Below, piece after piece: positions 28,679 through 31,447 of a DNA stretch of 64,000 nt. Source of the DNA: a virus (taxonomy: Duplodnaviria; Caudoviricetes); the IMG/VR virus record IMGVR_UViG_3300033066_000802, positions 90,612-154,611 of that record. One strand, written 5' to 3'. The notes below the pieces were generated by a model. The model did not search any database, was not told the origin of the DNA, and worked only from the letters and a program-made list of their open reading frames with translations. Numbering within the stretch: the first letter of the stretch is position 1; every line of letters starts with the position of its first letter. The translations under genes were made by a program, and so were the position numbers.

Positions 28679-31447
28679 ATGGCTAATAAAATACCAGTTG
28701 AAATAAGGGCTAAAGAAATACTATTAAATTATAATGGAACAAACGATTACCTTCTCGAATTAAAGTCGACTTTAATAAACAAAAAGACTTTACCATTTAC
28801 TCCAAATCTATGTACCTATATCATTAATAATCACAAAGTTAAGCCAGTAATAATTAATAACAAATTTTTATTACATAAGAGTTTAAGAAAATATTTACAA
28901 TTACACTATAAATTACAATTTGAACCAGAATTTATCTACGTCAATAAACTATTGACAAGGAAAAAAGATAATTTACATATTTGGGGATGTTTTTCAGATG
29001 ATTGTAAGTATTATTTTTCAATCTTCATTGATAAGAATGCAATGAAGAAGACTAAGAATGTTGAATTACCATCTTTTGATGATTATAAAAGACCGCCACT
29101 ACCACACCAATTACCAGCTATAAAAACATTATTAGAAAATGATAAATTTATTCTGGCTGATGATATGGGTTTAGCGAAAACAAGTTCAGCTATTGTTGCT
29201 GCAATTCTTGGAAACTACCAAAGAATTCTTGTTGTATGTCCAGCCACACTTAAACTAAACTGGAAAAAAGAAATATCCATATATGATGACCCAAGTAACA
29301 TATCTGTTATTGAGGGTTCGGATTTTACATTCAAAAAATGGACAATCATAAATTACGATATACTTAAAAACTTCCACTTTTTAAAGGAAAAGGGTGAGGA
29401 TGAGGTTAAACCGTCAATAATAGATTTTTATAAATATGACCTTATCATTGCTGATGAGTGTTTTCCATATAAAACTTTAGTGGATACCGATAAAGGTAAA
29501 TTAGAAATTGGTAATATAGTTGAAAACTGTTTAGATGTTAAAATATTATCATATAATTTAAAAAATTCTAAATTAGAATACAAACGAATTAATAGATGGA
29601 TTAAAAAAGAAAGTAACACTATATTAAAAATATCACTTCAAAACGAAAAATTTATAGAGTGTACACCTAATCATAAAATATATGTTAAAGATAGGGGTTA
29701 TATTAGAGCAGATAAAATATTAAAAAATGATGAATTATATACATTGCAAAAACCCAGTGACAAAAAATTGTCAATTCTGTGGAAAACAGATGATTCTAAC
29801 AGGGAAACGGAAGAAAAATCGATTCTGCGATACTGTTTGTTCAGCAAAATGGAAAATGAACCAACCAGAGATAAAAAAGAAAATTCACAATCCAGAAGTT
29901 TACAAAAAAGCAAAAATATCAAATATAGAAAATTACAAGAAAAATCCACAACGTGCAAAAGATTCATCAGATCGTATGAAAAAAAACAACCCAATGATGA
30001 ATATAGAAACGTTGGAGAAAATGAAAAATTCATTGAAAGGGAAAACCTTTTTATCAAGAGGTGGGAACGGAAAAACAACAATACAAGAACAAAAAATGAA
30101 AAATATTTTGGGTGTTGGCTGGGAACTACATTACGCAATAAAAACATCGATGGTAAAAACAATGTTCAAATCCTTACCGCCAGCATATCAAGTAGATTTA
30201 GGAAACGAAGATTTAAAAATCGCAATAGAGGTGGACGGAAAAACACATCTAACAAAAAAATGGAAATTTCTGGACAAAAGAAAAACGGAAGTATTAGAAG
30301 CGTTAGGGTGGAAAATATTGAGATTTTGGAATCAGGATGTGGACGATCAAATAGAAAATTGTTTGACGAAGATAAACGAGTTTATAACATCGAAGTAGCC
30401 GATAACCATAATTATTTTGCTGATAATATATTAGTTAGTAATTGTCATTATTTGAAAAACGCTTCAGCTAATCGTACCAAATTATTCAACGACTTTGCTT
30501 TAAAAATCAATACCAGGTGGCTTTTAACAGGTACACCTATTACAAGTAAACCAATTAATTTATATAATCTTTTATTATTATGTGATTCACCTTTGGCTAA
30601 TAATTGGGTTAGTTATGTTAGAAGGTACTGCGCTGGTAAACAATTCAATAGAAAGGGTACCACCCAAAAATATTGGGTAACTGATGGAGCAACAAATTTG
30701 GAAGAACTAAATGATTATATTAGTGATATATTATTACGTAGGTTAAAAAAAGATTCTGTTGAGTTACCACAAAAAACGGTTAAACCAATCTTCTTACCGT
30801 TATCCTCATCAAAAAGGTATAATGAATACATGATTGAATACCAGGAATGGTATAATGATATGGTTGAAAATGGTCTTGAGCCAAAACCAACGGAACATCT
30901 GACCCAACTGATTAAAATCAGACAATTATTATCTGAGGATAAAATGAGTAATACAATTAAGATTGCAGAAGATCTCATTGAAGAAGGTCATAAGGTAATC
31001 ATATTTTCTTGTTTCACCAACACCATACGTGGTATTCATGAGCATTTTGGTAAAGAATCCGTATTGATTGATGGTGCTATAAACTCTAAAAATAGAGATA
31101 TTGCTGTGGAAAAGTTCCAGAATGATAAGAAAGTCAAAGTATTTTGTGGTAATCTTATTGCCGCTGGCGCTGGCATTACTTTAACCGAAGGTACAATTGT
31201 AATATTTAATGACCTTGATTGGTTACCAGGAAACCATGCCCAGGCGAGTGATCGAGCCTATAGAATAGGTCAAACAAAAGATGTACATATTATATATATG
31301 TTGATTGATGACACATTGGATAATATGATGTATACAAGACTTCAAGAGAAAATAAAGGAAATCAATACTGTTATGGGTGATGAACATACGGAAGATGTAT
31401 CACTACTTAATGCTGTGGTTAGTAATTTATTAGTGGAAAGTAAGTAG
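28679..31447 (+). CDS. SNF2/HARP-like superfamily 2 helicase containing an intein
   Basis: LADDMGLAKT (I), VVCPA (Ia), DE|CH (II, split by intein), LTGTP (III), GAGITLT (V), QASDRAYRIGQ (VI). Confidence 0.93.
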   Translation: MANKIPVEIRAKEILLNYNGTNDYLLELKSTLINKKTLPFTPNLCTYIINNHKVKPVIINNKFLLHKSLRKYLQLHYKLQFEPEFIYVNKLLTRKKDNLHIWGCFSDDCKYYFSIFIDKNAMKKTKNVELPSFDDYKRPPLPHQLPAIKTLLENDKFILADDMGLAKTSSAIVAAILGNYQRILVVCPATLKLNWKKEISIYDDPSNISVIEGSDFTFKKWTIINYDILKNFHFLKEKGEDEVKPSIIDFYKYDLIIADECFPYKTLVDTDKGKLEIGNIVENCLDVKILSYNLKNSKLEYKRINRWIKKESNTILKISLQNEKFIECTPNHKIYVKDRGYIRADKILKNDELYTLQKPSDKKLSILWKTDDSNRETEEKSILRYCLFSKMENEPTRDKKENSQSRSLQKSKNIKYRKLQEKSTTCKRFIRSYEKKQPNDEYRNVGENEKFIERENLFIKRWERKNNNTRTKNEKYFGCWLGTTLRNKNIDGKNNVQILTASISSRFRKRRFKNRNRGGRKNTSNKKMEISGQKKNGSIRSVRVENIEILESGCGRSNRKLFDEDKRVYNIEVADNHNYFADNILVSNCHYLKNASANRTKLFNDFALKINTRWLLTGTPITSKPINLYNLLLLCDSPLANNWVSYVRRYCAGKQFNRKGTTQKYWVTDGATNLEELNDYISDILLRRLKKDSVELPQKTVKPIFLPLSSSKRYNEYMIEYQEWYNDMVENGLEPKPTEHLTQLIKIRQLLSEDKMSNTIKIAEDLIEEGHKVIIFSCFTNTIRGIHEHFGKESVLIDGAINSKNRDIAVEKFQNDKKVKVFCGNLIAAGAGITLTEGTIVIFNDLDWLPGNHAQASDRAYRIGQTKDVHIIYMLIDDTLDNMMYTRLQEKIKEINTVMGDEHTEDVSLLNAVVSNLLVESK
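29459..30442 (+). mobile_element. intein (328 aa) inserted in the helicase DECH motif
   Basis: Block A CFPYKTLVDT, block B CTPNHKIY, block F VYNIEVADNHNYFA, terminal VSN followed by +1 Cys; excision restores IIADECHYLKN. Confidence 0.93.
29727..30398 (+). CDS. DUF559/Vsr-like homing endonuclease overprinted in the +1 frame inside the intein
   Basis: 223 aa with its own ATG and TAG; CQFCGK...FCDTVC zinc motif, NPM/NUMOD-like linker, VDLG...IAIEVDGKTH...DKRK...LEALGWKILRFWN. Confidence 0.9.
   Translation: MMNYIHCKNPVTKNCQFCGKQMILTGKRKKNRFCDTVCSAKWKMNQPEIKKKIHNPEVYKKAKISNIENYKKNPQRAKDSSDRMKKNNPMMNIETLEKMKNSLKGKTFLSRGGNGKTTIQEQKMKNILGVGWELHYAIKTSMVKTMFKSLPPAYQVDLGNEDLKIAIEVDGKTHLTKKWKFLDKRKTEVLEALGWKILRFWNQDVDDQIENCLTKINEFITSK

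Follow-up and report, generated by a model that had tools for sequence, protein, structure and literature searches.

The 64,000-nucleotide (nt) stretch of viral DNA considered here (the window; positions 90,612 to 154,611 of the IMG/VR virus record IMGVR_UViG_3300033066_000802, Caudoviricetes) encodes a helicase of the SNF2 family whose open reading frame (ORF) is interrupted by an intein, and the intein in turn harbours a second gene on the same strand, shifted by +1 relative to the helicase. We read this unit as an intact class-1 intein that carries a complete, separately translated gene for a DUF559/Vsr-type endonuclease in its +1 frame. This reading as a whole is, in our judgement, highly probable, and its core is supported by every computational test that was run. 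The window has a guanine plus cytosine (GC) content of 30.5% and is phage-like in character. With the helicase frame called frame 0, a slash marking the insertion point, and model confidence given as pLDDT (predicted local distance difference test), the parts of the helicase and its intein are as follows.

28679..31447, + strand: SNF2-family helicase precursor including the intein, 922 amino acids (aa); SNF2-rel_dom 2.2e-21, Helicase_C 6e-15, phrog_62 DNA helicase 3.3e-91.
28679..29458, + strand: N-extein, ending in ...LIIADE, the Asp-Glu of motif II (Walker B); the intein-less relatives L014-L017 read ADE/AHYLKN here.
29459..30442, + strand: intein, 328 aa, frame 0, Cys1 to Ser327-Asn328; Pfam Intein_splicing.
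29459..29752, + strand: predicted N-terminal half of the Hint fold, residues 1-98, with blocks A and B; AlphaFold model m2c9ba1cef93e, pLDDT 71-84.
29753..30283, + strand: frame-0 read-through linker, residues 99-275, rich in K, R, N and S and predicted to be disordered (pLDDT about 20-25); the by-product translation of the nested gene.
30284..30442, + strand: predicted C-terminal half of the Hint fold, residues 276-328, with the strand SVRVENIEILESG and blocks F and G; model strands 279-291 and 308-326, pLDDT 62-81.
30443..31447, + strand: C-extein, opening with the +1 Cys (CHYLKN...) in place of the Ala of DEAH, by comparison with intein-less relatives.

The case for an intein rests on profile, residues and model alike. 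The insert matches PF14890 Intein_splicing at 5.8e-13 (49.4 bits against a cut-off of 35.8), and the match extends over residues 13-328, across a long insertion. Its sequence starts with CFPY, has TPNH as block B and ends in YNIEVADNHNYFADNILVSN, after which the helicase resumes with CHYLKN. Cys1, Thr69, His72, His317 and Asn328 are invariant in 11 loci, block B being T69-P-N-H72 and the +1 residue Cys. The initial annotation had described a helicase split at DE/CH by a 328-aa intein with these CFPY and TPNH motifs, and all of its statements about the sequence hold. In the frame-0 model, residues 1-98 and 279-328 make up a two-part, beta-rich Hint fold (pLDDT 62-84) on either side of residues 99-275, which are modelled at a pLDDT of about 22, and the VRVE.IEILE of the C-terminal half is kept in relatives. 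By these signatures the insert is assigned to the contiguous, cis-splicing class-1 inteins, at the Walker B (motif II) site, DE/AH or DE/CH, of a phage SNF2 helicase. Splicing activity would be expected from the selection for an open frame, described below, in a replication helicase of an essential type.

The same interval, read one base further on, holds the nested gene, the parts of which are given here together with its overlap with the intein.

29721..29723, + strand: TAA in the endonuclease frame, just before the ATGATG start; window sequence compared with relatives.
29727..30398, + strand: nested homing endonuclease gene, 223 aa, +1 relative to the helicase, with its own ATG and TAG; DUF559, MTES_1575, a fold match and 235 called homologues.
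29769..29840, + strand: zinc-ribbon-like module CxxC...CxxxC, endonuclease residues 15-38; C15, C18, C34 and C38 invariant, weak matches to zinc fingers of the FCS/YacG type.
30135..30389, + strand: Vsr/DUF559-type catalytic domain, about residues 137-221; D157, E168, D170, H174 and D183 invariant.
30293..30398, + strand: putative doubly functional overlap of about 35 codons; in frame 0 the intein strand SVRVENIEILESG and the start of block F, in the +1 frame LGWKILRFWN and the last helix.

A complete 223-aa gene with its own ATG and TAG, a zinc motif and a nuclease of the DUF559/Vsr type had been proposed for 29727-30398, and the proposal is borne out by a match to PF04480 DUF559 at 2.1e-13 (50.5 bits; cut-off 20.6) and to MTES_1575 at 2.2e-8, over residues 153-220. 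When the domains of both frames are compared, Intein_splicing is found in frame 0 only and DUF559 in +1 only, as had been foreseen. Of the proteins with a solved structure, the DUF559 protein 3HRL is the nearest relative, with an E-value of 1.2e-8 for the endonuclease profile against the PDB. The model of the endonuclease has a pLDDT of 79, and Foldseek pairs its C-terminal domain with 3HRL at a template modelling (TM) score of 0.79 (probability 1.00); the catalytic domain of I-Bth0305I (3R3P) follows at a TM score of 0.70, and 1CW0/1VSR lie lower. The five acidic and histidine residues listed for the catalytic domain are invariant in 11 sequences and align in sequence with the E.DG..H...D block of 3HRL; they are candidate equivalents of the catalytic D51, H69 and D97 of Vsr. 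All 50+ family-invariant endonuclease residues are kept in the window copy. The CxxC...CxxxC module is presumed to be the DNA-binding part of the enzyme. A similarity of SERMKxNNPM...EKMxxxLxGR to NUMOD3 was considered and is not claimed, since a Pfam scan of the endonuclease returned no NUMOD match. A 154-codon ORF on the minus strand (window 29698-30162) also overlies the nested gene, and across the region one frame of that strand has only 2 stops; the simplest account is that the sense strand is rich in A and poor in T.

The arrangement is widespread. In 30 other loci an intein has an endonuclease relative in its +1 frame and reads through it in its own: 13 from IMG/VR (40-52% identity), 12 from GTDB, three reached via called endonuclease proteins (L030, L033/L034) and two via the read-through peptide (L035, L036). 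The GTDB loci are mostly metagenome-assembled genomes of Anaerolineales with 48-63% GC, and carriers of the +1 arrangement as a whole span 29-63% GC and include the cultured Vibrio phage CP-T1. GenBank phages, when searched, gave 40 further records, phages of Vibrio lentus and V. crassostreae among them, and the layout is identical in both of those opened (L037, L038). The initial annotation had suggested that homologous inteins be searched for a class of this kind, and these loci provide one. All but two of the 30 loci are stop-free in frame 0. Both deviant copies are evidently damaged. One, L010 (3560-3600), equals the near-identical L003 (3560-3650) minus 52 nt, so that the 3' end of the endonuclease and part of the intein are gone and the helicase frame is shifted; it represents a defective genome or else an assembly variant. 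In the other (L030:860-960), a single indel midway through the nested gene fuses the frame of the N-intein to the C-terminal half of the endonuclease. Its called product of 372 aa carries Intein_splicing and DUF559 together and mimics a canonical in-frame intein endonuclease. Protein P0067, with the same two domains in one product, was considered as an in-frame form and rejected, being an overprinted unit with one indel, and P0022, which lies on a long contig, was rejected as a free-standing endonuclease, being nested in a helicase truncated by an N-run.

Selection on the helicase frame is seen most directly in its stop codons. In ordinary genes of the window, taken as a control, the frame one base before the codon holds 17 stops per 100 codons (observed/expected 1.14), and an ordinary 223-codon gene would therefore break the helicase at about 38 places. 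In 20,000 trials the +1 gene had its synonymous codons permuted, with the protein and the codon counts kept. The shuffled sequences had a mean of 12.1 helicase-frame stops over the nested gene and never fewer than 4, against 0 observed; stops in the third frame were at 29 observed for 27.5 expected. The nested gene has few T-ending codons, and those that remain never stand before AA, AG or GA. The same test in 25 further loci (26 with the window) gave 0 frame-0 stops in every one, against 8-17.5 expected. By group, 12-15.5 were expected in 10 IMG/VR loci and 8-17.5 in 13 loci at 48-63% GC, and frame 0 is also stop-free in two cultured Vibrio phages. The third frame was at expectation in the 24 of the 26 loci in which it was checked. 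A free-standing member of the family among small genes, L031, had 6 stops in this frame for 6.8 expected, that is, no stop avoidance. The openness of frame 0 across the nested gene is kept by selection, not by chance.

What the two frames are selected for differs. In 11 AT-rich loci, column variability at endonuclease codon positions 1, 2 and 3 is 0.80, 0.70 and 1.08 bits; the base that varies least is the third of the helicase-frame codon, the reverse of the pattern expected if frame 0 were under coding constraint. Over the linker-only part, Nei-Gojobori ratios of non-synonymous to synonymous substitution rates (dN/dS) for 15 pairs drawn from six closer loci are 0.14-0.39 for the endonuclease frame, 0.93-2.0 for frame 0 and 0.72-1.39 for the third. 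In relatives, purifying selection acts on the endonuclease as a protein, and the frame-0 linker is constrained only to stay open, not in its amino acids. Both had been named in advance as points on which the proposal could fail, through a +1 ORF without conservation or a linker matching a real conserved domain; the ORF is conserved, the frame-0 stretch between the Hint halves matched no Pfam family, and its dN/dS is near 1.

The two genes are interlocked at both ends. In most relatives the ATG of the endonuclease is formed by the intein codons Gly-Tyr-Val (GGN TAT GNN), directly past block B. In GC-rich relatives the intein codons Thr-Glu-Glu-Gly spell GAGGAAGG, GGAGGAGGA or AGGAGGA 5-9 nt before this ATG, which reads as a well-placed Shine-Dalgarno motif within conserved codons of the Hint domain. 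The window belongs to a different regime of initiation: the 26 gene starts listed for it (e.g. 32619, 43313, 54293) have A/T-rich leaders and in none a Shine-Dalgarno motif, and the 30 nt ahead of 29727, an A-rich leader, resemble an ordinary gene start of this phage. Such leaders fit a host with initiation independent of the Shine-Dalgarno motif, such as Bacteroidota. A scan for promoters of the sigma-70 type ahead of the nested gene was not above chance (25 found, 23.9 expected), and no Bacteroidetes-type TAnnTTTG occurs on the plus strand between 28841 and 32488; a separate promoter is not claimed, and the separate regulation put forward in the initial annotation is a suggestion. At the 3' end, about 35 codons appear to be functional in both frames. 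Both motifs of the overlap are conserved in 17 loci, and over the intein strand the third-position variability of the endonuclease drops from 1.10 to 0.69 bits. In one Anaerolineales group (L021:58-4578, L022-L024, L026) the nested gene extends beyond block F, ends in ...STISKLKETTTTS and overlaps more of the C-terminal splicing region.

In the mechanism that we infer from these sequences, which covers splicing, synthesis of the +1 product in this phage, the specificity of cleavage and homing, one transcript would give two products. Ribosomes translating the helicase would read through the nested gene in frame 0, and a disordered tether of roughly 177 residues would join the Hint halves; protein cis-splicing would then take out the whole insert and leave a DECH helicase. 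The endonuclease would be made from its own start codon by internal initiation on the same transcript, probably in small amounts, since its start lies in the path of elongating ribosomes. It would presumably cut intein-less DEAH alleles of co-infecting genomes, whereupon repair would copy the intein and the nested gene together, with the Ala-to-Cys change at +1.

Intein-less alleles of this kind exist. The closest helicases to that of the window (L014-L017, 73-77% aa identity) have no intein at this site and read FDLVIADE/AHYLKN, the canonical DEAH. More distant helicases do carry the DE/CH intein, which shows a presence/absence polymorphism. The target proposed in the initial annotation, an intein-less allele reading ...GAG/TGTCAT, needs correction, as the natural alleles read GATGAA/GCACAT (DE/AH). 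Within extein clades, extein, intein and endonuclease diverge in step; between the three extein clades the exteins are 28-35% identical, the intein's N-terminal part 43-56% and the endonuclease 42-58%. These values would fit a unit that passed now and then between diverged helicases and was inherited vertically thereafter, and are no proof of recent homing. A different intein occupies a second site in the same helicases: L014 (2501-3605), L016 and L017 have an unrelated canonical LAGLIDADG intein, in frame, at motif I (DDMGLGK/MEF...IVTHN/TTS), a site that is empty in the window. The Met directly after GLGK is an unusual intein N-terminus. A similar motif I insert lies in L001 (1265-2331), and L001/L002 apparently have inteins at both sites.

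Several observations weigh against the reading of an intact intein with an active, independently translated endonuclease. The penultimate residue of the intein is Ser327 (LVSN/C) in the window and in all AT-rich relatives, where His is usual. The penultimate His of block G is common in inteins, not obligatory, and several GC-rich relatives have it (LVHN/C). No ATG precedes the first zinc module in L012 (2857-3000), L028 (2198-2290) and L029 (1556-1630); their nested genes may have a non-canonical start or another entry into the frame, or may be decaying, and independent initiation is consequently not evident everywhere. The window copy has itself lost the ancestral start (TATATT, relatives TATGTT) and the first of the two zinc modules, with a new ATGATG, and its endonuclease may be weakened or inactive as a result. 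Selection on this copy is unmeasurable because it has no close relative: the best relative is 52% identical, and a blastn search of the window helicase against GenBank phages gave no match. As to mobility, the contrast between intein and extein identities hints at transfer and is not decisive. The same loss of the ancestral ATG and of one zinc module, together with the TAA at 29721 and the want of a near relative for measuring selection, is what speaks for the idea that the nested endonuclease of this phage is a recently inactivated relic, in an intein that still splices so that frame 0 must stay open. We consider this unlikely: the ORF of 223 codons is intact at a genomic GC content of 30%, the family-invariant residues are kept, the catalytic-type D157, E168, D170, H174 and D183 included, the new ATGATG follows an A-rich leader typical of the genes of this phage, and other called members of the family are equally short, at 174-235 aa.

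The three relatives without an ATG ahead of the first zinc module, and an A-rich run at the junction (TTAAAAAATGATG), would also suit programmed +1 ribosomal frameshifting out of the intein frame, giving a fusion of N-extein, N-intein and endonuclease. That is quite improbable for the window, where the +1-frame stop two codons before the ATG (29721-29723) confines the shift to about 5 nt; most relatives have the ATG, the GC-rich ones with a well-spaced Shine-Dalgarno motif, and no conserved slippery or stimulatory element was seen. It is slightly less credible still that the frame-0 linker is itself functional, as a basic tether that binds nucleic acid or regulates splicing, with both frames functional over the whole 670 nt. 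The linker is rich in K and R and has recurring positions (QSRYW, NRxRW, KEMEI), but these lie under invariant endonuclease residues, dN/dS is like that of the non-coding third frame, the least variable nucleotide is codon position 3 of frame 0, and the stretch is modelled as disordered with no Pfam match. A fractured gene, in which a split intein trans-splices the helicase halves around a free-standing endonuclease (as in Dassa et al., 2009), would share the endonuclease superfamily and the 3' overlap of the endonuclease with the C-intein, and a conserved frame-0 Met/Val stands 26 codons ahead of the C-terminal strand. We rejected this Met/Val as the start of a C-intein, since it follows from the codon of an invariant endonuclease Trp (AAA/AAG TGG, one base earlier). 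Frame 0 has no stop at all, and its openness, strongly selected in undamaged loci, would be pointless if translation ended after the N-intein; a fractured gene is accordingly very hard to credit. Least credible of all is a sequencing or assembly artefact in which two compensating indels, raised in the initial annotation as a possible undoing of the proposal, disguise an in-frame endonuclease domain. A-rich homopolymers are prone to indels, and L030 has its single indel and L010 its deletion of 52 nt. Against this, 30 other loci, which come from different samples and technologies and include complete genomes of cultured phages, show the identical +1 offset and a nested gene with its own start and stop, and compensating indels are therefore excluded even without reads. 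An in-frame fusion of intein and endonuclease was sought among longer proteins and none was found, which is weak evidence.

To gauge how common the overprinted unit is, a profile of the aligned frame-0 read-through peptides was compared with 1.84 billion representative proteins. It matched 936 proteins at E<=1e-3, of which 405 reached E<=1e-10 and 41 E<=1e-30; the majority are 600-2000+ aa long, with the match internal. Seven of eight sampled matches were ATPases with an interrupting insert; the eighth, P0160, was rejected as a family member, being a repetitive false positive, and 936 is therefore an upper bound and 405 the safer figure. Pfam Intein_splicing was found in six of the seven ATPases (SNF2 or ResIII-type helicases and one DnaX-like AAA+ clamp loader), and the seventh is a ResIII helicase with the junction DE/C...HN/CH. 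In the DNA behind two sampled matches the +1 endonuclease is intact. Hosts of the unit comprise SNF2 helicases, ResIII/DEAH helicases including gp10 of CP-T1, a methyltransferase-helicase fusion, a 2086-aa helicase and a clamp loader (L035). The fusion host, a DUF6094 methyltransferase joined to a helicase, is seen in one Anaerolineales group (L021-L024, L026). Junctions are mostly DE/CH or DE/CQ, with DEFH/CYKN in one Anaerolineales group and DEMHR/CK in L013. Called endonuclease proteins of the family number 235, mostly from contigs of about 1 kb, and that of the window is not among them. Some hosts carry further inteins. L012 (4150-5300) has a second one downstream in its ResIII-type helicase (LCLDLDTEILT...IMGNT), with LAGLIDADG-like motifs in frame, beside the overprinted one at DE/CH. 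The 1718-aa helicase P0129 matches Hom_end_hint with LAGLIDADG_3, Intein_splicing of the overprinted type and, further, Hint_2, which suggests three inteins in one SNF2 gene.

On this distribution we see evenly balanced prospects for a broader proposal: that these units form one large, old, undescribed lineage of overprinted intein and endonuclease (at least about 400 clusters at 50% identity), with frames co-adapted through start signals in Hint codons, about 35 dual codons and stop-avoiding codon choice, which moves among non-homologous P-loop ATPases (SNF2 and ResIII/DEAH helicases, methylase-helicase fusions, DnaX-like clamp loaders) by recognising the DNA for their shared DExH Walker B motif. 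Whatever its extent, the unit is a clean quantitative case of a 670-nt same-strand overlap kept by selection, in which one frame is held for its protein and the other merely for its readability, and so a natural test case for overprinting theory. It also bears on annotation. The nested gene is unannotated in the GenBank phage records with a relative, and in the 30 of these 40 records that were listed the region is named just "helicase", "P-loop NTPase", "coil containing" or "hypothetical"; hundreds more can be found with the read-through peptide as a handy marker. As the family is present in cultured phages, translation, splicing and homing are directly testable. For intein engineering, the predicted disordered tether of roughly 177 residues would be a useful indication of the size of unstructured insert that a Hint domain may tolerate.

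The initial annotation was aware of no characterised example of such an architecture, and precedents exist in two preprints, which we compare as far as their available passages go. Gosselin, Arsenault and Gogarten (bioRxiv 10.1101/2025.01.02.630785) report actinophage inteins of contiguous build, with antisense endonucleases of the LAGLIDADG or VSR-like kind and one EndoVII-like endonuclease in sense frame 3, and predict that such inteins are under-reported. The likeness to the window unit is close: a contiguous intein, a structureless read-through in the extein frame and a complete endonuclease ORF in another frame, missed by annotation, for which the proposed origin is in both cases a free-standing endonuclease gene invading an intein. 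In those passages VSR-like endonucleases are only antisense, whereas that of the window is DUF559/Vsr-like, on the sense strand and in the +1 frame; the hosts there are terminase, polymerase, capsid and thymidylate synthase genes of high-GC actinophages, and here the Walker B sites of helicases and a clamp loader at 29-63% GC. The 2026 preprint (bioRxiv 10.64898/2026.09.14.751524) reports a cyanobacterial dnaX intein with an out-of-frame homing endonuclease, again an intein in a P-loop ATPase, and our L035 sits in a DnaX-like clamp loader. The words Vsr, DUF559 and HNH do not occur in that preprint, and a linker search from L035 matched only itself and no named cyanobacterial protein. Statistics of stop avoidance, per-frame dN/dS, embedded start signals, a doubly functional overlap and a marker-based census were not seen in the available passages of the earlier papers on out-of-frame endonucleases.

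Outside inteins proper, Arsenault et al. (2025, PMC11855218) described the ShiLan type, out-of-frame HNH insertions in phage DNA methylases, which share with the window unit an endonuclease gene hidden out of frame in a host ORF that stays open. These have no splicing domain and the read-through peptide is retained, whereas here a complete flanking Hint domain should remove it. Among single enzymes, the window endonuclease resembles I-Bth0305I of the EDxHD family (Taylor et al., 2011, PMC3239194; 3R3P) in its presumed N-terminal DNA-binding region, C-terminal nuclease of the Vsr fold and conserved acidic and His residues. It differs in having zinc CxxC...CxxxC modules in place of NUMOD repeats and in residing in an intein rather than a group I intron, and the profile match between the two is not significant (E 0.13).

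The fractured genes of Dassa et al. (2009, PMC2677866), in which free-standing Vsr-like or GIY-YIG endonuclease genes lie between split-intein halves, agree with the window unit in endonuclease superfamily, in the position between intein halves, in strand and in their setting, mostly phage genes of DNA metabolism. They have a stop after the N-intein, 27-51 nt of non-coding sequence and a new Met for the C-intein, whereas here there is no stop and no spacer and the frame is selected to stay open; the 3' overlap of the endonuclease with the C-intein is 6-69 bp there and about 105 bp here, and their eight host enzymes do not include SNF2 or ResIII helicases. Dassa et al. proposed that such genes may later turn into in-frame domains, and the overprinted unit is a natural test case for the step missing between fractured genes and canonical inteins, that of free-standing endonucleases becoming intein domains. 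The architecture thus belongs to a recently recognised kind, the out-of-frame intein endonucleases of the 2025-2026 preprints, and is not categorically new. What is undescribed in the literature found, as far as its available passages extend, is the combination seen here: a sense-strand, +1, DUF559/Vsr-like endonuclease with zinc modules, at Walker B sites, in AT-rich and GC-rich genomes alike.

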